A stretch of 64,000 nt of DNA from assembly GCA_020137815.1 (NCBI GenBank), contig CM035361.1:3658001-3722000 (forward strand). The letters run 5' to 3'. The translations under genes and the position numbers were made by a program. The notes under the pieces were generated by a model. That model was given only the letters and a program-made list of their open reading frames with translations. It ran no database searches and was not told the DNA's origin. This DNA is from Hormiphora californensis (lineage: Eukaryota; Animalia; Ctenophora). This document shows positions 6,551 to 32,476 of the stretch, piece after piece; within the stretch, counting starts at the first letter, position 1; every line of letters starts with the position of its first letter.

Positions 6551-8586
6551 TATCCGTGTCAGCGTTGCGAATATAAAAGTTGAATTGCCCAGACTCTGAC
6601 TTTTCCAGACTCTGACTTTTACTCACAGATCGACACGGATCATTGTCTATTGCGCACCCAGACCCCCCCCCCCCCGGTTCCGCCACCCCTGATATCGTCT
6701 ATTCAAGGTGGTCTACTAGCTTGCTGCCCGATCCTGTCTTTCCACATTTGGATAGGGAATAACTGTATTAATCGCCTGAAATAGCAACCTAAGTAAATAT
6801 AATATTTTAGCGATATAGTGAGGGAGATATAATATTTTAGCGATAGTGAATTTGAGTGAGCAAGAACTATAGCTATAGCAACTCTGGAAAGATATAGATT
6901 CACAGAATCAGGATGATTCTTAGATGATTCTTATCTATAGGTCTGGCAGACTAAAACTCAGATCCTATATAAGTGATATAATCTAGATGATAGAACGTAG
7001 CTGATTCTAGGTTTCTATTTTTCTAAATCCTAGGTTCCAGAATTAAATCTTATCTAGTGGCTAATGATTCTAGGCAGGAAGTAGGAACCAACCGAAACAA
7101 GTAAACAACCAATCAGAACTCGTTATTTAGGTCACGTGACTGGTCATCAGCCAATCAGGGACCAGTATTTCCTGATTCGGTCGGTTCCTGATTCTAGATT
7201 TTCTAGGTTCTAGAATTGCAGTCTTGCAGACTCTAAAAAATCCCATATCAAGATTAACTCCTAGTACGAGATAATTCATATGCTGCAGTCGCGATCGATC
7301 TTGCAGACTTTAACACTTTAACTCCTAGTAGGAGATGATTCTACTAGCTCCTGCAGCCTAGAGTGCAGACTGGATCCAATATTAAGATCCGCCTAGTAGA
7401 GTCTAGGATCTCATTTGGATTCTCCCGCGTATCATGCAGCTACCGCAGAGTGAAAAGCGTGAATTATATTATATCCTAATAATTGAATATCCCATCTGGA
7501 ACAATCTCATACAGGGCATATTATATACTGAATTTTAGCTGATCTATATCCTCCATAAATATTCTGAAGTTTCGACTCTGCTGCAGTAATCTGCAGTGGC
7601 CAGTGCTGCTGCACATATCTGAGCTCAGCTATGAACTCTAGGTTGCGTTTGAACCATGAGAGACAGCTTGTATACGTCTTATCCTGCTAATATCTGGTCG
7701 AAATTGCAACCTTCATCCTAAGAAATTAAGTAAGTATACTTATTTAGCAGAATTTAGCAGAGCTAAGATGAGGAGTTATAACTCCTCATCTTAGCTCTGC
7801 TAAATTCTGCTAAATTCTGTCGAGCTCTTATACTTTGTCAGTCATATTGTGCAGCAATAGCTGATCAGTAATATATATTCAAGGCGACGTGTGTCTGTGC
7901 ACACCTTTATGTCAAGGTCAATTGAGAATGACTAATTAATTAGTTTGAATGGCTAGCCTAATTACTAGCCTTATTACTAGCCTATAATTACTCTTGACCA
8001 CTTCCCATTAAAACCGCGCTTTTAAATACTAGCTAACAGTGCACTTTCTCGCTTGAACAATATTAGTTTTGCTGTCGCCTGTCAGTTTTCTAACTTAGCT
8101 CTCGACCAGGTTTCAATGCACCAGACCCCAGACCCGATCTGAGCGATGCTGAAAACAACGGGGTTAGCTCCAGAATTATTTCTCAGATATATTAGCCCCC
8201 CCCCCCCCGGCACCCCATTAACTAATAATATAACATCAACTGTTATATAGAAATGATATTGGTAGTAGCGCTCGTTTTATCGGGCCAGATCATGGTAGCA
8301 GCAGGAGGGGAAACTTTGGTGGCAGCAGGAGGGGACACTTTGGATGATCTTCTTGTGGCTCGATTCAACGGTACAGTGATCGGACCCCGGTAAATCGGGA
8401 TACCGGTAAATCGGGGCCCGCTAAATCGGGGTACCGGTAAATCGGGGTACCGGTAAATCGGGGCCCGGTAAATCGGGGTCCGACTGTATATATGGTGTTA
8501 CGACATGATTAGTAAATTCATAACCAGTTAATTTAACATCTCTCTCCCCCTCCACAGATTTAATAAAACTGAATCACATTGATGAG

Positions 8587-11500
8587 ATGGGGGAGGATGA
8601 GAGGATGATGCGAGGGGCTGTTTTCTCCATTGCCTGTCTCGTATCAACACCTAATTGGAACACCACTACTGAGTGAGTTTTTTGTAGTATTTTGTAAAGG
8701 CAATATATTTGTAATACAAATACTTAAATAACTTTAAAATACTTTACTCTTCTAAATGATTAGAATAATTTTAGTAGTGGAACTGGATATTAAATGATCG
8801 GAAGATTTTGCTAAGAATAACCTGACCAAGTATGATCACGGCGGGAACATATAATCAGTTTAGACGATTCGATAAAAATACTAATGCCCCTCTTTACCGG
8901 GTGGAGGGGGGGGTAAATATTTTTATGCACTTTCGTATATGTGCCTGACATATTATGTATATCATGGTGCAGGTGGAGTCTACCGCCCGTCATGACACGT
9001 ATACTGCCGGACCCTGATTTAGGGACACCCTCGGGGGAAAGGCTCTTGTCCACTAAATCGGGGGCCCCTAAATCGGGGTCCGACTGTTATAGTATCATAC
9101 TGCATAAAAAGATTTTAAGATTATAACGGATTGCAGTGACTATTGTATGACAGCGATGTAATTTATGTAACGCTCTAATTTGGATTATATCCAAGCTGCA
9201 GGACTGATTTTACTTGTTAGTATCTGCAGCAGGAACCGACCGAATCAGGAATTACTGGCCCCTGATTGATAACCAGTCACGTGACCTAAATAACGAGTTC
9301 TGATTGGTTGTTTACTTGTTTTGGTCGGTTCCTGATCTGCAGATCAAAAACAGTAATTTGTTGAGAACGTCCCTCAGCATGAAGTATTAATTAATATAAT
9401 ATGACCGTCCCAGTAAACATACAGTTCCAATATTATTGAATATAAATAAGAACAAACAGATGGAGTCCACTGGAGCAAGGCCAGTGGCCACCCGCGTCTG
9501 GGTATCAGAAACAAGTTTTTAAGAACTTTAATCGGCATGGTCACTGGTCAGTCCCAATATACATGGCATGCAGATATTAGGGTTATTTTGTTCAAACTCT
9601 ATAACAATCAGGAATTTGTTTTATAAGATCCCGGTTAACCTAGATAGCCCGGATATTTGACATTTTTGAGATTTTAAAAGGAAGCTCGTGGAAATTTTTT
9701 ATTTTCATTATGACGTCATAGAATCTCGTCTCAGCATATGATACCCCTAATTATCTCGGCCAAAGATGCACGTGCTTCTTTTTCAGGGTATCATTATATG
9801 ATACCCTGTATCATAAGGCATTATCATTATAGGATCACTGAAGACTGAAAAGTAGCGGATCAAAGATATCCAATCAGTCAGGCACGGCCAGAGTAGCATG
9901 GGAGCTTTTTGCTCCATGTGCATGGCAGCAGGTCGATTCTGCAGCAGGAATATATTCAATCGGTGAGATCATAATCATTCTGCTGCAGAATGAACCAGAA
10001 CCTTCCCTTTTTTGAACCTCTATCTCTCTAATCTATAATGTCAATATTACTGGCCGACTCAATGAATTCCAACCCCCATCTCTCATCTCAGAGCATCAAA
10101 TTCAAACCCCAGATATCTCATATCTCAGAGCATCAAATTCCAACCCCATATCTCATCTCAGAGCAACAAATTCAAACCCCAGATATGATCTCATATCTCA
10201 GAGCATCAAATTCCAACCCCCATTTCTCATCTCAGAGCATCAAATTCCAACCCCATTTTTCATCTCACATCATAAAATTCCAACCCCCATCTCTCATATT
10301 CTCAGAGCATCAAATTCCAACCCCCATCTCTCATATCTCAGAGCATCAAATTCCAACCCTCATCTCTCATCTCAAAGCATCAAATTCCAACCCTATCTCT
10401 CATCTCAGAGCATCTCAGAGCATCAAAATTACCTTCTCATCCTCTCAGAGCATCCCAACTGTGTCCGGACATCACCACGGACGCCCTGTACCTCCCAGAG
10501 GAGCTAGACTCAATGAACTCGGGCACAGTTCTGGAGAAGAACAAGGAGATGGTCCCGCCAACAGAGGATGTGCCAGAGGAGGACCGATATTGGGGGAGGG
10601 CCAGACGATCGGTTAGTTATAATTATTGTTAATTAGTGATAATTAATTAATTCGGGCCCCGATTTACCGACCCCTGAATTACCGATATTCACGCCCGATT
10701 TATCTGGGTCAAATACCGTGCACCCCGATGTACCCGAGCATGAACCCGGTAAATCGGGGCCCGACTGAGCTCATTATAATCATGGCTTTTGATGCACAAT
10801 TGCCCCAATTGAAATGTCATTATAACAGCTAAAAGAACTAGGCTCACATTATTTGATAGTCTAGTCATGATGATGACAAATTAATAATGTGACAGCTCTT
10901 TCTCTTTCTCAATTCTCTCTCTCATCCAGATTATTGATCTTAGCCACATCAATTCATGCTCTCTCTTTCAGGGTACTCCAAGTAGTTTTGATGTCAGGGA
11001 TGAGCTCAATTGGGTCTCCGATCCACCGGTCCAGGGTGTATGCGGAAACTGCTATATTCACGCAGGTAACATCTGTAGTTTAAATACATCGTAATTGCAC
11101 TTAGAGACATGGTTTCGTGGCCGAGCGGTCTAAGGCGCCAGTTTAAGGCACTGGTCCTCCGGGGCGTGGGTTCGAATCCCACCGAAGCCAACTTTTTTTG
11201 GCATTTTTCTTTTTCCTTTTTTGTATTTCATCGTACCCAGTTAAGTAATAAATCAAATAGCTAATTAACAGAATTTATAGTAGCTTTTACCGCAGGGAGC
11301 AGGGAAAAAAGTACATTTAAAAAAAGCATTTAAAGCCGTATCATACTTTCGACTACTTTAAACAAAAAAGTTGGCTTCGGTGGGATTCGAACCCACGCCC
11401 CGGAGGACCAGTGCCTTAAACTGGCGCCTTAGACCGCTCGGCCACGAAACCATGAAGATAACGCAATTTGGAAATACCAAATACACGTACAAATACATCC

Positions 11501-14500
11501 GGAAGAAAGAAGTTAAGTTTTGCAATAAATTGGCTTCTTTGAGCTGGATTTAACTAACTAAACGGAATCGCGTATTTCTCGTGGTTTCGTGGCCGAGCGG
11601 TCTAAGGCGCCAGTTTAAGGCACTGGTCCTCCGGGGCGTGGGTTCGAATCCCACCGAAGCCAACTTTTTTGTAAAATTAACTACAAATTTCAGGGAAATT
11701 AATATTAATTCATCCCTTGTAAAACATTGTTTTAAAGTTTAAATTTAGCAATACTTTTTACCGTGTTTATTTTATCTAAAAACTATAGAATCACAACCAA
11801 AAATTCCAAAAAAAAGTTGGCTTCGGTGGGATTCGAACCCACGCCCCGGAGGACCAGTGCCTTAAACTGGCGCCTTAGACCGCTCGGCCACGAAACTATG
11901 TTAATATTGCAATTTCACTTAACTATATATGCTATAAATTTCAAGCGCGGCTGACATTGCATTATGTGTTATTTCGAACACCCTAGTTATAAATTACTAA
12001 TAATTGATTTAATTAATTATTTTCAGCTGTGTCATCGCTTGAGATCGCCAACACGCGGGCAACGGGAGCTAGGACATTCTTCTCTCGCCAAGAGCTGACT
12101 GATTGCTTCTTCAGGGGATGTGAAGGGGGAGATTTTAGGTATTTAATCATATTGCATCTCTCAGTCTCTAATATCCAATTCTATGGCAGTGGCCACCATT
12201 GACAGTATGTACATAAATCTCATGCATAACATCTAATTTATATCCCCCCAATTTAACAAGTAAAACCGCTCTCACAACCCCCTCCCAATTCCCCTGCCCA
12301 GAATGGTTGCTAACATGCTCGCCACAATGGATCATCTTGCATCAGCCCACGAGTATGGACCTTATCTGTCGAGGGGGGCTAAGCATGGATTTGCATGCAA
12401 GGCATCCCTTACACCAGATTCTCTACTCGGTATAAAGGTACGTTCAGACACGTAGATAATAGATATTTTCTGAAAATTCATGCAGATGGTTTACATATTT
12501 TATGTTTATATTAGAAATTCTATTTAATTATCTTGATCTTATAAATATTTTATTCCAATAAACGATCTCACAAGTATAAAATCAATGTTAATATTAAATA
12601 TCATATTTAGGTTGAGGGATACAGACCAGTTACGGTTGATAACTTTGAACGCTCCATAATTAAATATGGCTCTGTTATCGCTTGCTTTGATACAGGTATA
12701 CGGTGGCAGATTCCGGCCAAGAGTTTTTTTAGTCAAGTGAAATATTTTTGCTTGAAGTTTTATAAAAATTTTATTTAAAAATAAAAATAAACATGTCCTT
12801 AAAATTATTGGCCGGAATCTGCCACGCGAGTGGCAGATCTCGGCCAAGATTCTAAAAAAACCTTGGCCAGAATCTGCCAACCACGTGGCAGATTCCGGCC
12901 AACAAACTAATTTTACTTATATCAAAGCGAAAACCGATGTACCCGACTAATTTTGATACGCTGAATCACGTAAGCAACTTTTCCAATCCCTCAGAGGTCG
13001 GGAAAGTGTCCTAATTGAGCATAATAGGGTCTAATTGACCCCACTTACAACTTTTCACCTGGAAACGATAGACGCTTATGTGAAGGCACTTTTCCGACTA
13101 ATTTTGATACGCTGAATCACGTAAGCTGTTTATCAAAGCCCCCCGAGGTCGGTAAAGTGCCCTAATTGAGCAATTAAGGCCAATTAGACCCAATTATACT
13201 TAATTAGGCCAAATTCCCGACCTCGGAAGGCTTGGAAAAGTTGCTTACGTGATTCAGCGTATCAAAATTAGTCGGAAAAGTGCCTTCACATAAGCGTCTA
13301 TCGTTTCCAGGTGAAAAGTTGTAAGTGGGGTCAATTAGACCCAATTATGCTCAATTAGGACACTTTCGCGACCTCTGAGGGATTGGAAAAGTTGCTTACG
13401 TGATTCAGCGTATCAAAATTAGTCGGGTACAGCAGTTTTCGCTTTGATATAAGTAAGTTTCAGTTTGTTGGCCGGAATCTGCCACGTGGTTGGCAGATTC
13501 TGGCCAAGTTTTTTTTAGAATTTTGGCCGAGATCTGCCACTCGCGTGGCAGATTCCGGCCAATAATTTTAACAAAATGTTTGTTTTTATTTTGAAATAAA
13601 ATTTTTATAAAACTTCAAACAAAAATATTTCACTTGATTGAAAAAAAACTCTTGGCCGGAATCTGCCACCGTACAGGTATAATACTTGATTAGATTGGAT
13701 TTGAGATACTAGATTAAGTTAGATTCCTTCTTCGAACATATACGTAGTTAAATACACTAAATATTAATTAGCTGATTATTAAAAGCTGGCGTTTTAAACT
13801 ATAAAATATTAATTATTAAATGCTGGATAACAAATTACAGGTCATAAAAGTAAAACGTGCGGAGAGAATTATTTGCATCTCCCCGGTGGGGTGCTGGATG
13901 GACCTGCGGTGGACGGAGGGTGCACCCATGCCATCCTACTCGTGGGGTGAGTTTGGGCAGGTTTGGGCATATTTGGGCAGGTTATTATTCCTCCGATTTC
14001 ATGATTTTCGCGGCTTTTCTAAGGCCATGACTTTCGCAGCTTTTCACTCAAAGTTATTAATGAATTTTTAACCAGGAAAAGTCATAAACAATATTTTGAG
14101 ATAAGATTGTTATATCAATATCAATTATATACGTTATAACATATTATATTTGTTGCCTAGATACACTCCGGAATACTACATAGCACGTGATAGCAGAGGT
14201 GTTTCAAAAGGTAACCGGGGATACTTCAACATAAAACGAGGAGGAAATGTCTGTGGAATTGAAGACGACATGGCGGTAATTAATTGATTAATTACATATT
14301 ATCAAGTACATAATTAAATATTCAAACATGCCACTTTTTAACTAATTCATCAATCTGAATCAGAGTTTTAGTTGCAGATAAGTTGGCATTAATCGGTATA
14401 AGTTTATGATGAATCGCCCCATTCTTCATCTTCAAAAGTTGTCAAATCAATTTATTATTAATTTACTTATTTATCAATCAGGCTCTAGTGACAGTTCGAA

Positions 14501-16065
14501 GGAGAGGATCAAAGGCGGTTGCTTCTAGGACCCACTGTCCACTGGACAAGCCCCGGTTTTGCCCCCAATCTTTCTCCTGTACAAGCAACAACCGGTGTTT
14601 TGATCCGTATGGGCGATCGGGCGAAAGGAGGAAACGGAGTGCGATGTCCAAAAGGGTAATTGTTGTGAAAGAACAACATCTCTCGCATCTCTTTCATTTT
14701 ATCTCACGCTCTGGTCTCTAGACGGTGTCTAGACGGTACCGTCCCGGCGTCTGGACGGCGTCTGGACGGTGTCTAGACGGTATCCGTCCGAAATTGAGAC
14801 GGCACGTCTGAAAATTGTACCAGACGTTGAGACGGACTTTTAGAACTCCGTCTGTATTTCAGACGGAGTTTTAAAAGTACGTCTCAACGCAGTCTAAAGG
14901 AAAATCGATGAAAGTACCGTCTAGACAACGTCTCAACTGAAACCGGTCAAAATACCGTCTAAACAACGTCTAGACAACGTCTTAAGCGAATCCGATACAG
15001 ATACCGTCTAAACAACGTCTCATAGTATCAGCCATAAACAGTATCTCACAGTTGTATTACAACGCGATAGCTGGATGTAAGAGTGAATGTGGAGATACCA
15101 AAACAGTTTGGCTGAATGTAAGAAGAAACAGCAACCCGCCATTGTCGTCTCATGAATGTAAAGGCGCGAAGTTTAATTCTTTAGACTGCCTACCACACAT
15201 CTACCACTAATTCCAACTGGCATGGGTAATCCAGAATGGTCTTCGAAAACGGTCGAGTCTAGACATCATTATTTGAGACGTTTTCTAGACGTTGTTTAGA
15301 CGGTATTCTTATCGAAATTGCTGGAGAAGTTGTTCTAGACGGTATTTGAAACTGAATCGCGAGATTCTGTTTAGACGTTGTCTAGACGTTGTTTAGACGG
15401 TATATTGACCGGTTTCAGTTGAGACGTTGTCTAGACGGTACTTTCATCGATTTTCCTTTAGACTGCGTTGAGACGTACTTTTAAAACTCCGTCTGAAATA
15501 CAGACGGAGTTCTAAAAGTCCGTCTCAACGTCTGATACAATTTTCAGACGTGCCGTCTCAATTTCGGACGGATACCGTCTAGACACCGTCCAGACGCCGT
15601 CCAGACGCCGGGACGGTACCGTCTAGACACCGTCTAGAGACCGTCTGATACCGTCGCAACACCGTCTGATACCGTCTATAACCCGTCTAGAGACCGTCTG
15701 ATACCGTCTATAACCCGTCTCAAGCAATTTCGGTACCGTTTTTAGCTGATTTCACCGAAACCCGTCCAGACGCCGTCTAGACGGCGTTGCGACGCCGTCT
15801 AGACGCCGTATGCCGCAAATGAGAAATTGCCCTCTTATCTCCCTCCTATCACCCTTTTATAATAACCCCCGCTTGCCACCCTCCCGGGACACCAACTTTT
15901 CTCACTCTTATCTATCTCTTATCTCTCTCTCTCTCTCTTATCTTACTCGTATCTCACATTACCCTCTTATCTCCATCTTATATCCCCTTATCTCCCTCTT
16001 TATATCTCACTGTTATCTCTCGTTAATCTCACTCTTATCTCCCTCCTACTCTGATCACCCTCTTA

Positions 16066-16163
<98 letters not shown>

Positions 16164-18415
16164 GCTCTTATCTCCCTCTTATCTATCTCTCTCTATCTCT
16201 CTTATCTCTCTCTTTATATATCTCACCATTATCTCCCTGTATATCTCCCTCTTATCGCCCATTCTCCATCTTTTCTCCCTCTTATCACCCTCTTATCGCC
16301 CTCTCATCTCCCTCTTATCTCTATCTTTAGTCTTTATATCTCGCTCTTATCTCCTATTCTCCCTCGCAGGAAACTAACTTTTCCACCTGTGAAGACACGA
16401 TCCAAAGCTGTTTGGTTTTCCGGAACACAGGTCGATGCTCTCAGAGCAACGTGAGGAACACTCTGTGCAGAAAAACGTGTGGAACGTGCACGAGCACCAT
16501 GTAAGATCAGCCAATCAGAAGATGCCATTACTATATCACGTGATCTATATTGACCAATCAGAACACGCCATTACTATATATCACGCAATAATTGTTAACC
16601 AATCAGAACACATGTTTCACAGGAATGTTTGCCGAGATTTGAGTGGATCATGTTTATCCTTAACTCCGGAGCAGTGCAAAGTTGGAAACATGAACAGAGC
16701 TTGTCCACAATCTTGTGGAATGTGCCGAGGGTAGGTTCATTAATTAATTAACTAATTTACTATTTAACTAATAGGCTAATTATTTAAAATTTTACTAGCA
16801 GCGGACTTTATTCTAGCTCACGTGTGACTTGTGTATCTTTTTTTACTAAAATTGTTGACCATTCAATCACGTGTGAAGGGCGGGTCAGCTATTATTAATA
16901 TCTAATTTCCAGGAACCGACCCAATCAGGAAATACTGGTCCCTGATTGGCTAATAACCAGTCACGTGACCTAAATATCGAGTTCTGATTGGTTGTTTACT
17001 TGTGTCGGTCAGTTCCTGTCTAATTTCTACTATTTCTATCCCCTCAGATCACGTGGAGGGAGACAAAGAGGACGGTTTATTGGTCACATGGCACTTGGTG
17101 GCCCCAAGGCGCTGTCAGGAGATTGTGCTGTTCCAACCATTGACCACGGACGCGTCATGACATCACGGTATGTTATTGTAGGGCATCACTCAGATCACGC
17201 GTGACTGATCACGCATCCAGCTCACGCGTGATTGATCACGCACCATGGTCATTAAGATTCAATGGTCCTGAATCAAATCAATCTCTAAATTAGGTCGAGA
17301 TTGGTGAGCGGAGAGAACCTGAATGTTGAATGTGATCCGGGTTATGTTAAGACTGGACAGGCAGTGACTTGTGTGATACAAGAGGTGTTCAGTAGAGATA
17401 GCCGCTTCCATCCTTCTTGCATCGAGGTTAGAAAATGAACGTTCGTTTAGCGCTTTCATGGTGACAGTGCTCCTTCATAAAATATTTTGTGCGCACAAAC
17501 AAGTAAATAATTATTCTTGGCACTTTTGGCCGTTTGTGATTATTTTCGAATTCAATTCATGGTTACCATGGTTACCGCCCTGTAGGTTGGTGGTGAGGAT
17601 TATACTGGAACGGGCGAGGATTATAAAGGGATCAAAAGTACATCCGCCACGGGAGAACAATGTCTCTACTGGAACAGTGCTATCGCATCAGGTATTAATA
17701 ATTCCCCTGCCTTCAAACTTTCACCAACTTTCCAAGTAAAACAATTAATCAATTGTTAATTATTCAACTTTTGTTTAGGCTCTCTGACCGGCCTCGAGAA
17801 AAAGGACTTGTTTCTAACGGAGAATCACAACTTTTGCAGAAACTTTGGAGGGATCGAGGTAATTTAATATTTCAATGTACAGTCGGACTCCGATTTAGTG
17901 GCCCCCGATTTAGTGGCACCCCGATTTAGTGGCAGGATTTCCCCCGAGGATGCATCTAAATCGGGGTCCGACTGTACTACATTTATCAGAATAAGTAAAT
18001 TAATTAATTGAATCTACGTTTTTAGGTAATGCCTTACTGCCTTGTGGACGTTGGCGGGTCAATTCAGGAACAACTCTGTTTCAAGGTACTTTTCACTAAA
18101 TCTTTTTTCTTTTTATACACAATTTGGAAATACGCGTCACCGGCGTGGGTTTAATTTTGCAACCTTGATTCGATCGGGAATGCTATATTACAATTGTTAA
18201 ATGTATTTTATATCCCGTTATTATAAATTTCGTTTCAGACTCCCAAATGTGAGGTCTGTGAAGGCCCTGAAGACCACCCTACTTCAACCTTTAACTGCAA
18301 CCAATTAACGGAGTGCGAATACGGAGAAGGACCAGAGACGGACGGCATGACGTGGAATTGGAAGTATTGTACCGCTACTTGTTGTAGGTTGTCTGGTGAT
18401 TTGTGTCATAATTAG
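8587..18415 (+). CDS. Multidomain papain-family (C1A) cysteine peptidase: propeptide - peptidase - 4-Cys mini-domain - ShKT x2 - Sushi/CCP - kringle - ShK-like Cys-rich domain (spliced)
   Basis: 16 phase-compatible GT-AG exons: 10449-10611, 10972-11065, 12027-12138, 12302-12437, 12611-12695, 13841-13946, 14161-14275, 14482-14655, 16370-16500, 16623-16730, 17048-17167, 17294-17426, 17586-17691, 17779-17858, 18026-18085, 18239-18415 (~632 aa, TAG stop). Papain motifs: PSSFDVR, QGVCGNCY (Cys at 11050), FSRQELTDC..GCEGG, HAILLVGY (His at 13927), GYFNIKRGGNVCGI. The 5' exons (8587-8672 MGEDERMMRGAVFSIACLVST and noisy pieces to ~9960) are uncertain. Confidence 0.9.
10060..10455. repeat. ~30-bp minisatellite (catctcagagcatcaaattccaacccc) ending at a splice acceptor
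   Basis: About a dozen degenerate units; the last ctcag|agcatc is the acceptor of exon 10449. Confidence 0.9.
11111..11190 (+). tRNA. tRNA-Leu(AAG), copy 1
   Basis: Acceptor stem GGTTTCG/CGAAGCC, anticodon arm CCAGT-TTAAGGC-ACTGG, long variable arm, GTTCGAATC T-loop/B box, T-run terminator. Confidence 0.95.
11372..11451 (-). tRNA. tRNA-Leu(AAG), copy 2
   Basis: Exact reverse complement of copy 1, followed by a T-run on the minus strand. Confidence 0.95.
11583..11662 (+). tRNA. tRNA-Leu(AAG), copy 3
   Basis: Identical to copy 1, followed by acttttttg. Confidence 0.95.
11818..11897 (-). tRNA. tRNA-Leu(AAG), copy 4 (G1->A variant)
   Basis: Reverse complement of copy 1 except the first base is A, giving an A1:C72 mismatch. 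Confidence 0.9.
12701..13671. mobile_element. Foldback (near whole-length palindrome) non-autonomous DNA transposon, Mutator-like TSD length
   Basis: cggtggcagattccggccaagag ... ctcttggccggaatctgccaccg; arms pair almost to the centre; flanked by the 10-bp direct repeat tacaggtata (12691-12700, 13672-13681). Confidence 0.9.
14713..15810. mobile_element. Foldback element with internally repeated (ccgtctagac-type) arms
   Basis: ~300-bp arms (14713-15020 vs ~15370-15643) built of short gacgg/ccgtc repeats around a unique spacer; the repeats continue to ~15810. Confidence 0.75.
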
Positions 18416-22990: not shown

Positions 22991-23897
22991 GTTCAGATCA
23001 AACAAAACCATAATCTTTTACAATTGGAGCTTTAACACATAATATTTCCCAATTGCTCAACTTTCCCAGTCTTTGTTGTTGAGTTACTCAACTCTTTGTC
23101 TTTTTCTTCAGCAACTACGCCTCTGATATAATTTTATAATTCATGCTGAATGATCATATGTTTTATGCTGAATATGCAGAGTCAGAGAGAGATGAGTCAG
23201 CAGCATGGTGAACCCTAATATAGCTGCGCATAGTGTAACATAAACATAGAGTAAAACACAAGCTGTCAGGCCAGCGCATGAGCTTTGACACATTGCGACT
23301 CATGCTCTGACAGCTGTGAAACATCATGAGTTTCTTTATAAACATGAGTCTTTGTACGTGTGTTTCAGACCGACAATATGTTGTTGCTTTAGTTACCATT
23401 CGCACAATGTACAGTCGGACCCCGATTTACCGGAAATGCTCAGGGGAAAGGGGTTTTGCCCGGTAAATCGGGGTCCGAAAGTACCTTTGTCAATATCCTA
23501 GCAATTAGTTTGTAATAGGTTTGTGTGGTAGGCAAGGTGCGGAAAACTATTCCACATGGTGTTAATTGGTAGAATTCTACTGTGGAGAAAGAACGGACAT
23601 AATTCTTACTTTTTATTTCCTCGCTGTTATAGCCTATCCGCGAAATAGTAGCTTTCATGAGCCTTTTCTATGCAGCTTATGATGCTTCTAGCATGTGTTA
23701 TTTTTAGTTAATTATTTGCTACGATTATTCATTAAGCGATACCCCCAAAATCTGTTCAGGCCTAAATCTGTTCAAAGTCCAAAAATATATTTTGTTGGTT
23801 GTTTACAGTATGAACCCATAAATCCATTCGAAAATAAGCACACTAGTGCACAGTACCCGTAATTAAATCCAGTTATTAACCCAATAGTGCATCAGCA

Positions 23898-26800
23898 ATG
23901 ATCAAGCCTAAGAAGTATGATTGGAAGGATTCCAACATGGCCCTTTTTGGGTCCGACCTGGATAAGGGTGTCAAGAAGGAGGCGGCCAAACTTGAACCTG
24001 CCTGGGAGGGATCTGGTAAGAAATTACTTTACTAATATTAGTATGAATTTAGTCGTAATTTTACTATACTTTTATCTAAAAATGAAAGTACCCTAGACAT
24101 AGCTTCCGCGTGAAACATCCCTCTGATCAAGAACCGACCGAATCAGGAAATACTGGCCAATGGCTGATAACCAGTCACGTGACCTAAATAACGAGTTCTG
24201 ATTGGTTGTTTACTGATACCCATATAATTTCAGGTCAAAAGGTTGGTATGGAGATCTGGAGAGTCGTCAAGTTTAAGATTCAGAAGTGGCCTGTTGAGGA
24301 CCATGGAAAATTCTACAGTGGAGACTCTTACATTATTCTCAACACTTACAAGTAAGAGCTAAATTGCAACCTATTCTTGCTCCTATGTGAGATCGATCTC
24401 AGTCGCGCGCGACGTCGATCTCACTCAGGTATCAATGTGGCCAATACAAGTAAGAGCTAATTTCATGTCTATATGAATGAGTAGATCTTGTACAATTTTA
24501 TTAATTCAGTTAAAGGATATTTTATCTTCAATTCAGGAACACTATAGTGCATTCATTGTTCATTCATCACTCATCAGGAACCCTTAGTTTATTCATTGTT
24601 CATTCGTTAGGAACCGTTAGTTTATTTATTGTTCATTCATTGCAGGAACCCCGATGAGGATGACCTAGAATATGATCTCCACTTTTGGATTGGAAAATAT
24701 TCCACACAGGATGAGTATGGAACTGTTGCCTACAAAACTGTCGAGTTGGACACTTACCATAACGATAAACCCGTCCAACATAGGTGTGATTAGTTAATTA
24801 GTTGGTAATTAATTAGTAATTAGTGGTCCAGCACAGGTGTGATTAGTTAATTATTAATTGGTAATTAATTAGTAATTAGTGGTCCAGCACAGGTTTTAAA
24901 ACCATTGATGAGTTAGTATTAAGCGATCCGTAAACGTTGACATTTAATTTTCTCAACACAGCTGCCCTATGCAATAAACTATTAGTTAATTAATTAGTTA
25001 ATTGATGACTATTCCAGGGAGATCCAGGGAAATGAATCAAGTTTATTCCAGACCTACTTCCCCAAGGGAATCGAGCTGCTGAAGGGTGGTGCTGAGAGTG
25101 GATTTAGGCACGTCAAACCCACAGAGTATAAACCTCGACTTTTCCAATTCGTCGGTAATTACAACAACAAATTGATCCTTGTGTTTTTTTAGGACACGAC
25201 ATGACAGCTTCACATATTTAATTGATCGCTATAATAGATAATACAAATTAAAAACGACAGCAGTTTTTAAGGTCTATACACATGTTTCATGGTGCCCCAC
25301 GAGGAGGCACCAATCATATAAGATAATGATAATTTTAGTTATTTTAAAGTTTAACACCTTATTTTCAGGCACAACCTATGCCAATACCGTCATCAAAGAG
25401 GTGGGTCTCTACAGGCAGTCACTGAACAAGGAGGATGTTTTTGTTCTTGATCGAGGTCTGGAGATCTTCCAAATTAACACTCCTAAATGCGACAAAGATG
25501 AAAAGGTAACTAATAGTTATATCATATGCCCAAATATGGACAATAGTTACTAACTATTGTCCATATTTGGGCATATGATATCATCACATGTCCAAATATG
25601 GTCATATATGACGTTGACACACCTAAATTCGAGAAAGTTTATTTTGCCTTGCAAGCCTTGTCTTTTCTGTTCTAACCGCTTCCCGATCTATAGAATATAG
25701 ATCTATCGAGTTGCTTAGTTGCTCATTAATAAGCACGTCAACTGCTCAGGAACCGACCTTAAGTTAACTAATTCTAATATATCTGTTTGGTTTCATAATT
25801 CACACCAATGGTGTTGGTGAATAATCAAACCAAACAAATATATTTGCACTGCAGCCTCCACCATCTCATCCAAATAATTCTAATATGTACTTGTAGGTGA
25901 AGGCAATGCACTATTGTTTGAAACTAAAGGATGAGAGATGCGGAAGACCCAAGATTATCCAGGTTGACGACAATAACCCTCTAGAGGAAGAAAAGGTGAG
26001 TGAGCTGCACGTGCAGATATCGGGAAGGGGGAAAGGGGCAAGAAAAGGTGAGTGAGATGCACGTGCACCCCTTCTTGGCTCCATTGCAACCTATTCTCGA
26101 TCTCACTCAGGCATCAATGTGGCCAACACCCTTTCCAACAACAGATCTGGGAAGATCAATCTAATCTTTTTATTACAAAATACAACCAGCTGAAAGGGAG
26201 TGCCACTAACTATACGCACACTTAACTATAATATATACTATTAATTAATCAATTAACTAATTAATTAACATTCCTAAATAGGTTGCTGAGGTGATCAAGG
26301 ATAAGACGAAGAAAGAAAAGACCGGACCTCCCCCTGGACCACACACCAACAAACTCGTCAAGGTAGGAGTCTAGAAACTGATCTTCTTCTAGGTACTAGA
26401 GTAATAATAATTGTAGAACTAGTAGTAGTAGTACAGTCGGACCCCGATTTAGTGGCACCCCGATTTAGGGACAGAATTTTTTTTCCCCGATATAGGAAAT
26501 TAACCTTATTTGACCCCGATTTAGTGGACACCCCGATTTAGTGAACAAGAGCCTTTCTCCCGAGGGTGTCCCTAAATCGGGGTCCGACTGTAGTAGAAAT
26601 TATTTAGTGGAAGTAGTAGGTGCTATTCATATAATAGTGGGATAAACTTCTATCATTAGTTAGTAAGTTTAATTAGTTATTTAACCAATTAATCATGATT
26701 TCACCCCTGATCAGGTGTCGGATGAGTCGGGAACCTGCAAAATGGTTGAGATTGCCAGTGGTCAGCTGGAACAGGACCAACTTGACCCCAACGATGTCTT

Positions 26801-27150
26801 TATTGTCGACCTGGAAAAGGAAATCTTTGTGTGGGTCGGAGACAGTAAGTTTACCAAATATTAAGGGTAACCATGGTAACCATGGTAACTAGGACATGGT
26901 AACCATGGTAACCATGGTAACTTGAATTTCTAAATTTCAACGCCATAGAACAGCTGTTTCCTAATTGGTATATTGATGAATATCCAATGTTACCTTTGCA
27001 GACGCGAGTAGTGAGGAGAAGAAGAACGGAATGGCATACGCCCATACCTACGTCTCCAAGACTGACAGACCACTGAGGAGTATCAGCGTGGTGAACCAGA
27101 GACGGGCACACCATTGTTACGCCATGATGAACAAGGCGAACACAGCATAG
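23898..27150 (+). CDS. Gelsolin-like protein (three-domain severin/fragmin type), 368 aa
   Basis: 9 phase-compatible exons: 23898-24015, 24234-24351, 24646-24783, 25018-25154, 25369-25505, 25897-25995, 26282-26362, 26715-26844, 27002-27150. Motifs [94 protein letters not shown]. Confidence 0.95.
26433..26590. mobile_element. MITE family B (Tc1/mariner-pogo-like, TA TSD), representative copy
   Basis: ta|cagtcggaccccgattta...taaatcggggtccgactg|ta with internal ccccgattta repeats. Related copies near 4287, 8373, 9003, 10652, 17880, 19010, 23411, 43494, 47070, 49460. Confidence 0.85.
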
Positions 27151-31698: not shown

Positions 31699-31896
31699 CC
31701 CCTGAGAGGCACAAAACTTAAAATATCGCCCTGAAACTTTACCCCGGGGTTAACTCATCCAAATATTCAATTTAGATCGATGAGATAAACGGGACGTGGA
31801 TAAAGCTTCCCTCGTTACCTGCAGCTCGCAAAGCTGACTCTGAAATAGAGTCCATCCTGTGCTCGGCATTACTCAACTGGAACCTTTTCCTCTTAG

Positions 31897-32476
31897 CCAC
31901 CGTTGCTAAGGACTCCATTCCACCTTTGGTAAGGACTCCATCCCACCGTTGCTAAGGACTCCATCCCACCGTTGCTAAGGACTCCATCCCACCGTTGCTA
32001 AGGACTCCATCCCACCGTTGCTAAGGACTCCATCCCACCGTTGCTAAGGACTCCGTCCCACCGTTGCTAAGGACTCCATCACACCGTTGCTAAGGACTCC
32101 ATCCCACCGTTGCTAAGGACTTCATCCCACCGTTGCTAAGGACTCCATCCCACCGTTGCTAAGGACTCCATCCCACCGTTGCTAAGGACTCCATCCCACC
32201 GTTGCTAAGGACTCCATCACACCGTTGCTAAGGACTCCATCCCACCGTTGCTAAGGACTCCATCCCACCGTTGCTAAGGACTCTATCCCACCGTTGCCAA
32301 GGACTTTATCACACCGTTGCTAAGGACTCCATCCCACCGTTGCTAAGGACTCCATCCCACCGTTGCTAAGGACTCCATCCCACCGTTGCCAAGGACTCCA
32401 TCCCACCGTTGCCAAGGACTCCATCCCACCGTTGCCAAGGACTCCATCCCACCGTTGCTAAGGACTCCATCCCACC
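31897..32476. repeat. 23-bp minisatellite (ccaccgttgctaaggactccatc), ~25 copies
   Basis: Period 23 (actcc at 31981, 32004, 32027), highly homogeneous. Confidence 0.95.

Follow-up and report, generated by a model that had tools for sequence, protein, structure and literature searches.

Basic sites, conserved as Lys-Arg in relatives, flank the peptidase of a predicted papain-family precursor with a ShKT-sushi-kringle tail in the ctenophore Hormiphora californensis

We analysed 64,000 nucleotides of the Hormiphora californensis genome (Ctenophora; NCBI GenBank assembly GCA_020137815.1, contig CM035361.1, positions 3,658,001 to 3,722,000 of the forward strand), hereafter called the window and numbered from its first nucleotide. 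The window consists of intron-rich eukaryotic DNA and carries a gene for a predicted papain-family cysteine peptidase joined to a long tail of extracellular-type domains. Judged from sequence comparisons, the precursor would be cut by a secretory convertase on both sides of the peptidase, giving a pro-piece, the peptidase and one large tail; the probability of this reading was put at roughly two in three. The evidence comes from basic motifs at the two domain borders and from the conservation of dibasic Lys-Arg (KR) sites at the same borders in the relatives of the protein.

The gene was modelled as 18 exons on the + strand (8253-18415), with GT-AG introns throughout, which yield an open predicted protein of 710 amino acids (Table 1). 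This protein was compared with a family profile of 675 positions, made from 30 relatives with the window protein excluded, and matched it at E=5.5e-169 (positions 26-673). The order of its parts is as follows: hydrophobic N-terminus, pro-region, papain-family peptidase, a mini-domain with four cysteines (4-Cys), two ShKT domains, Arg-rich linker, sushi, kringle and a Cys-rich end. The domain account of the original prediction, which had been made from the letters of the window, held up to the linker after the second ShKT; the ~200 amino acids beyond it (sushi, kringle and Cys-rich end) had been overlooked. When single exons were scanned with Pfam, Peptidase_C1 was matched on three exons (one above the cut-off) and ShK twice above the cut-off, while Sushi and Kringle were matched below it. 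The signal peptide was predicted from hydropathy only (maximum at residues 1-7, no second long hydrophobic stretch). The Cys-rich C-terminal domain was compared with ShKT as a candidate third copy, with an hhalign probability of 5.5%. An additional exon at 9882-9931 was ruled out by its lower family-profile score (541 bits, vs 548 bits without it), and other exon candidates across 8673-10448 were weak.

The strict furin motif R-X-K/R-R was found twice (RARR and RRKR) in the 631 amino acids scanned, for an expectation of 0.35 in shuffled sequences (P(>=2)=0.048). Taken alone, the two motifs are mildly above chance, and the case for the sites is made because of their location at domain borders together with the family data, not by the motif count alone. 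As originally predicted, each motif precedes a Ser, RARR standing directly ahead of the mature-like start and RRKR between the peptidase with its 4-Cys mini-domain and the first ShKT; both are close to exon ends (the Ser after RARR closes its exon at 10611 and the mature-like sequence opens the next at 10972; RRKR is 18 nucleotides upstream of the exon end at 14655). The basic linker reported past the second ShKT was also recovered, across the 16730/17048 exon junction. A KR nearer to ShKT1 than RRKR had been overlooked. A possible third site, the RRR just past the peptidase (14497-14505), is not claimed: this region is dibasic in 9 of 31 relatives and has a furin motif in 0.

Relatives were collected in two ways: a peptidase-exon search of 1.84 billion representatives gave 27 matches, and an alignment search that scored 7993 candidates gave 27 matches at E<=1e-60. 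The counts below use 32 relatives, drawn from 11 exon-search matches, P0035 (replacing its cluster-mate P0015) and 21 new alignment-search matches, which give 33 rows, with overlaps removed. Single-exon fragments (P0001, P0004, P0005), cluster members at >=90% and tail-less or generic C1A proteins (P0002, P0003, P0006, P0007, P0008, P0010, P0020, P0022, P0023, P0025, P0026 and P0027; P0007 and P0020 without Pfam scan) were left out of the counts, and P0092 and P0096 were used in the tail tree only. The denominator of each count is the number of relatives whose region could be bounded; the post-ShKT linker of P0056 escaped the pattern and had no KR or RR by eye.

All species-named relatives belong to Mnemiopsis leidyi or Bolinopsis microptera, with several per species, and are annotated as 'hypothetical' or 'uncharacterized'. 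On these matches the protein is one of a multi-gene family in which every named member comes from a ctenophore; KAL5272856.1 and XP_063692342.1 are examples. Within each species the named paralogues (P0048/P0104, P0050, P0051 and P0055/P0097 of Mnemiopsis, and the Bolinopsis members) have a longest contig of equal length in their records, and two Mnemiopsis genes carry neighbouring locus tags (G000394, G000395), which suggests clustered duplication. The Mnemiopsis neighbour of one paralogue (P0060/P0061) appeared by eye to be matrix metalloproteinase-like, with its own R-X-K-R, and an older gene model fuses both. No paralogue was found inside the 64-kb window by tblastn, and querying with the RRKR exon gave no homologue of near-equal length. 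A metagenome scan gave 12 loci with 45-67% identity over short segments, which were taken as generic C1A matches.

Both borders of the peptidase carry dibasic sites across the family. At the pro/mature junction, KR was present at most 30 amino acids upstream of the mature Phe/Tyr in 22 of 24 relatives (shuffle mean 4.6, maximum 10). Ahead of the first ShKT the linker was dibasic in 28/30 relatives, and a dibasic site stood within 6 amino acids of ShKT Cys1 in 23 of the 30 (shuffle mean 3.7, maximum 9). The order of the two residues was strongly biased: 34 KR vs 3 RK in a 42-amino-acid window at the junction (~8 each in shuffles), and 102 KR vs 19 RK in the pre-ShKT linker (~22 each in shuffles). 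Such a bias is the trace expected of selection for convertase sites, since composition alone would yield KR and RK equally. RR stayed at shuffle level, so that the excess is of KR specifically, and in the same shuffle comparison of the relatives KR was not in excess within the peptidase, the ShKT, the linker that follows it or the tail. The KR sites are spread over most of the nine tree subgroups. The strict motif was found in 1/24 relatives at the junction and in 15/30 in the linker, and the P4 residue of the KR sites was mostly aliphatic (Leu 54, Val 20, Ile 11, with Arg 17). By these alignments it is dibasic KR, and not the strict furin site, that is conserved: the expectation that they would be kept in relatives held for the dibasic pair and failed for the strict motif, and the label 'furin-type' does not describe the family.

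The processing that we propose would run as follows. The 710-amino-acid precursor would be secreted, and a convertase of kexin/furin/prohormone convertase (PC) type would cut after residue 131 and after residues 400 and 406. The predicted products are a 14 kDa pro-piece, a ~269-amino-acid (29 kDa) chain with the peptidase and mini-domain, and a ~304-amino-acid (33 kDa) ShKT-ShKT-sushi-kringle-Cys-rich tail, which would begin at residue 407 after trimming at the second KR. The predicted peptidase chain holds 13 cysteines (the catalytic one included) and the tail 28, and an inter-chain disulfide is not needed. C1A pro-pieces can stay as bound inhibitors after cutting; here the cut pro-piece would probably remain bound until pH or more proteolysis frees the enzyme, and the cut would prime the peptidase, not switch it on. 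The tail may have a binding or targeting role, not that of a channel toxin. As to the machinery, the Mnemiopsis gene ML200226a is listed as PC1/2/3/Furin-like in the supplement of PMC9525235, a study that also describes basic cleavage sites in ctenophore peptides detected by mass spectrometry. Of the secretory-pathway processing that had been envisaged, the part around the peptidase agrees with the basic-site conservation and the KR-over-RK bias, and the strict furin rule and the free ShKT products were not sustained.

Several points weigh against cutting by a convertase at both borders. The junction site is missing in P0047 and P0054, and the linker site in P0013 and P0054. No true orthologue spanning either basic site was found in the searches, P0001 (85% identical) spanning one peptidase exon only. 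The relatives are a mixture of paralogues and orthologues of ~30-47% identity with shared ancestry, and their site counts are not independent. Acidic cleavage sites are likewise described as major in ctenophores (PMC9525235). Finally, the Asp at 14267-14269 aligns with cathepsin B Glu245 (PDB alignment) and could permit self-cleavage at basic sites.

By homology (Pfam PF00112, MEROPS C1A) and by its Gln-Cys-His residues, the window protein is assigned to the papain-family peptidases. The oxyanion Gln (11032-11034) and the catalytic pair of Cys (11050-11052) and His (13927-13929) are intact; Asn175 is replaced by Asp (14189-14191), Trp177 by Arg (14195-14197) and the next Trp by Lys. Peptidase_C1 was matched in the relatives with E-values down to 1e-36 (Pfam), and the best PDB match of the family profile was pro-cathepsin H (E 2.7e-31, including alignment to its pro-region); no Pfam I29 match was found in the window exons or the family members scanned. 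The papain fold was modelled on the relative P0013, not on the window protein: the prediction (predicted local distance difference test, pLDDT, 72.5; predicted template modelling score, pTM, 0.72) matched procathepsin L structures at E 1e-17. An earlier fold of P0018, made with 9 sequences, was poor (pLDDT 54). At the Asn-Ser-Trp position most relatives have Asn-Ser-His, and the window has Asp-Ser-Arg. The latter also occurs in P0001, whose identity across this exon is 85%, and in P0017, which retains its catalytic His, and this recurrence shows that it is not a sequencing error. With Asn175 and Trp177 both replaced, the window protein is not, by its sequence, a canonical cathepsin L/H-type enzyme, and a Cys-His-Asp paralogue with Arg for Trp177 probably has altered or weak activity. 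The 'active protease' of the original prediction is uncertain on the same grounds, Cys and His being intact yet Asn175 and Trp177 changed.

The alternative that survives best, and that is compatible with convertase cutting, is that the window gene is a dead or near-dead paralogue, perhaps still cut, with a binding or structural role; we regard this as rather unlikely. The three substitutions and the Asn-Ser-His of most relatives are in its favour, as is the peptidase tree, in which the window gene groups (94/95) with P0011 and P0019, both without catalytic Cys and His. That grouping, however, involves long branches and is absent from the tail tree, the Gln, Cys and His are intact, Asp-Ser-Arg recurs in the His-bearing P0017, and Asn175 is described as important yet non-essential (PMC8244254). 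The same source describes Trp177 as shielding the active site. Loss of catalytic residues does occur in the family: P0011, P0019, P0021 and P0092 have the same tail and lack catalytic residues (pseudo-peptidases), and the pro-region of P0019 is nearly absent.

It was also predicted that furin processing, with a cut in the Arg-rich linker, would free single or tandem ShKT peptides acting on voltage-gated potassium (Kv) channels, which we find improbable. Both ShKTs exceed the Pfam cut-off, and the window linker is richer in Arg (5 in 27 amino acids) than that of any of the 28 relatives (0-2 each), with two RxxR. Those two RxxR are within the chance range (P=0.13), however, and the linker lacks KR, RR and R-X-K/R-R; among the relatives it is dibasic in 1/28 and has a furin motif in 0/28. 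A motif scan found no basic site between ShKT1 and ShKT2 in the window protein, and the sushi, kringle and Cys-rich domains follow the second ShKT. The Lys-Tyr dyad is absent from both window ShKTs, and Lys-Tyr/Phe was seen between Cys3 and Cys4 in 4 of the 33 ShKT segments examined. According to PMC6409789, channel activity does not require the dyad and is not ensured by it, so its absence lowers the chance of such activity without excluding it. The missing conserved downstream site is the stronger argument, from sequence, against free ShK peptides, and their reading as Kv toxins is not supported. The gene offers no evidence for a ctenophore ShK toxin.

Equally improbable, in our judgement, is self-cleavage at the basic sites, or their cleavage by active paralogues, in place of convertase action. 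An acidic residue at the cathepsin B Glu245 position favours a basic P2, and Asp is found there in the window protein and in 9/32 relatives. Members that have Val, Gln, Thr, Asn or His instead are, however, no poorer in KR sites, and it is KR that is favoured, RR staying at shuffle level. P0011 and P0021, which have lost the catalytic His, retain R-X-K-R ahead of ShKT, which fits cutting in trans. The least probable alternative is a protein that stays a single chain and whose flexible linkers carry the basic motifs by chance: the modest P(>=2) and the full-length model of P0013, which reached its pTM with no linker site, would allow it, and the family-wide KR-over-RK bias, with positional conservation confined to two regions, argues against it.

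If the working model is convertase cutting at both borders of the peptidase, the family, with its KR sites and prohormone-like linkers, would connect a cysteine protease with secretory peptide processing in an animal lineage that branched off very early. Papain-family enzymes usually mature through acid self-activation or other lysosomal proteases, and no precedent for a furin-processed papain-like enzyme was found in the literature search. The papain-family precursor with C1A-ShKT-sushi-kringle architecture and prohormone-like sites is apparently undescribed: literature searches, whose coverage mostly left out subscription papers, found no earlier account of such a family, and in the part of the PMC6278862 supplement available, C1A and ShKT entries are in separate genes and there is no kringle. 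The family would supply a defined set of substrates on which ctenophore convertases can be tested, together with a Cys-His-Asp variant that occurs naturally.

The pre-ShKT linkers of many relatives are long, acidic and split by up to 10 dibasic sites, and R-I/V-P-G units were found in 10/30; the window linker has 25 amino acids and no such repeat. In P0009, P0035, P0039-P0045, P0051, P0056 and P0057, acidic linkers carry KR arrays around repeated short R/K-I/V-P-G peptides and resemble peptide-hormone precursors. One speculative and, in our estimate, unlikely extension is that these proteins form an expanded ctenophore family of protease-prohormone hybrids, in which convertase cutting of a single precursor would release a papain-like enzyme and a ShKT-sushi-kringle module, together with, in many paralogues, several short repeat peptides (R-I/V-P-G units lying between KR sites) that would carry signalling or prey-directed activity of their own; the window gene would be a Cys-His-Asp variant.

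Table 1. Features of the predicted precursor gene, in window coordinates.
Feature	Position	Strand	Basis
Exon 1: start codon and hydrophobic N-terminus, predicted signal peptide	8253..8370	+	translation; hydropathy
Exon 2: pro-region, degenerate ERFNIN-type helix	8558..8672	+	GT-AG, in phase with 10449; aligns with pro-regions of relatives
Exon 3: pro-region end	10449..10611	+	translation; alignment with relatives; family-profile score
RARR, predicted convertase site at the pro/mature junction	10597..10608	+	ends 6 amino acids ahead of the conserved mature-start F/Y
Peptidase domain, six exons (10972-11065, 12027-12138, 12302-12437, 12611-12695, 13841-13946, 14161-14275)	10972..14275	+	Pfam Peptidase_C1; PDB alignments
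4-Cys mini-domain	14536..14598	+	kept across family; no Pfam match
RRKR, predicted convertase site after the 4-Cys mini-domain	14626..14637	+	motif scan
KR at exon end, 6 amino acids ahead of ShKT1 Cys1; equivalent of the family KR directly preceding ShKT	14650..14655	+	relatives
ShKT domain 1, six Cys, without Lys-Tyr dyad	16370..16500	+	Pfam ShK 28 bits, cut-off 20.9
ShKT domain 2, six Cys, without Lys-Tyr dyad	16623..16730	+	Pfam ShK 22.9 bits
Arg-rich linker, ShKT2 to sushi; without KR/RR; not conserved	17048..17123	+	motif scan; relatives
Sushi domain (exons 17048-17167, 17294-17426)	17124..17420	+	Pfam Sushi, one exon, below cut-off; above cut-off in several relatives
Kringle-like domain (exons 17586-17691, 17779-17858, 18026-18085, start of 18239)	17586..18250	+	Pfam Kringle E 2.6e-5 on one exon; matched in full-length relatives
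C-terminal Cys-rich domain, specific to the family, with stop codon (18413-18415)	18257..18415	+	sequence; relatives

Repeats and other genes were noted in and around the gene. Four tRNA-Leu(AAG) genes in alternating orientation (11110-11898) occupy the intron between peptidase exons 1 and 2. A foldback element, similar to a miniature inverted-repeat transposable element (12699-13673), is placed at the donor of exon 12611-12695, and its short flanking direct repeat copies the splice donor, giving a second donor-like site past the element. A second foldback element (14713-15812), with 280-nucleotide arms that are 98% complementary, is found in the intron after the KR-ending exon. Tandem repeat arrays were seen just upstream of exon 3 (10060-10430) and at 31895-32460, the latter with an open repetitive reading frame. 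The neighbouring gene at 23840-27150 (+ strand) is gelsolin-like, with one exon matching Pfam Gelsolin just below the cut-off.

Among known systems, the C1A proenzymes (procathepsin L/H, propapain) share with the ctenophore family the papain fold (as modelled for P0013), a pro-region and the Gln-Cys-His residues. The ctenophore proteins differ from them by a Tyr after the catalytic Cys, the replacement of Trp177 (by His in most relatives and Arg in the window), the lack of an I29 match in the members scanned, the conserved KR at the pro/mature junction and the 300-amino-acid ShKT-sushi-kringle tail; the window protein differs further by its Asp for Asn175. In plant proteases of the RD21/granulin type and in cruzipain, a C1A peptidase bears a C-terminal extension (Cys-rich module) that is separated from it at maturation; the modules are different, and the ctenophore border has dibasic convertase-type sites, often in arrays.

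Prohormone and neuropeptide precursors resemble the linkers of the relatives in that acidic spacers and short repeat peptides lie between KR sites, but the arrays of the relatives are embedded in a protease. The family motifs had no match, except one unrelated G-protein-coupled receptor row, in the available portion of the supplements of PMC9525235, a study aimed at amidated peptides. Sea anemone ShK-type toxin precursors share the six-Cys ShKT pattern and, with most relatives, a basic site immediately ahead of Cys1, whereas the window ShKT is internal, with three further domains after it, no conserved downstream site and no Lys-Tyr dyad. A parallel in overall design is offered by the ShKT-carrying astacins (Hydra HMP1, HMP2 and HAS7, and nematode astacins), in which a secreted protease is combined with ShKT and more extracellular domains (PMC9848320); these are zinc metallopeptidases, whereas the ctenophore protein is a predicted cysteine peptidase with conserved basic sites between its catalytic part and ShKT.

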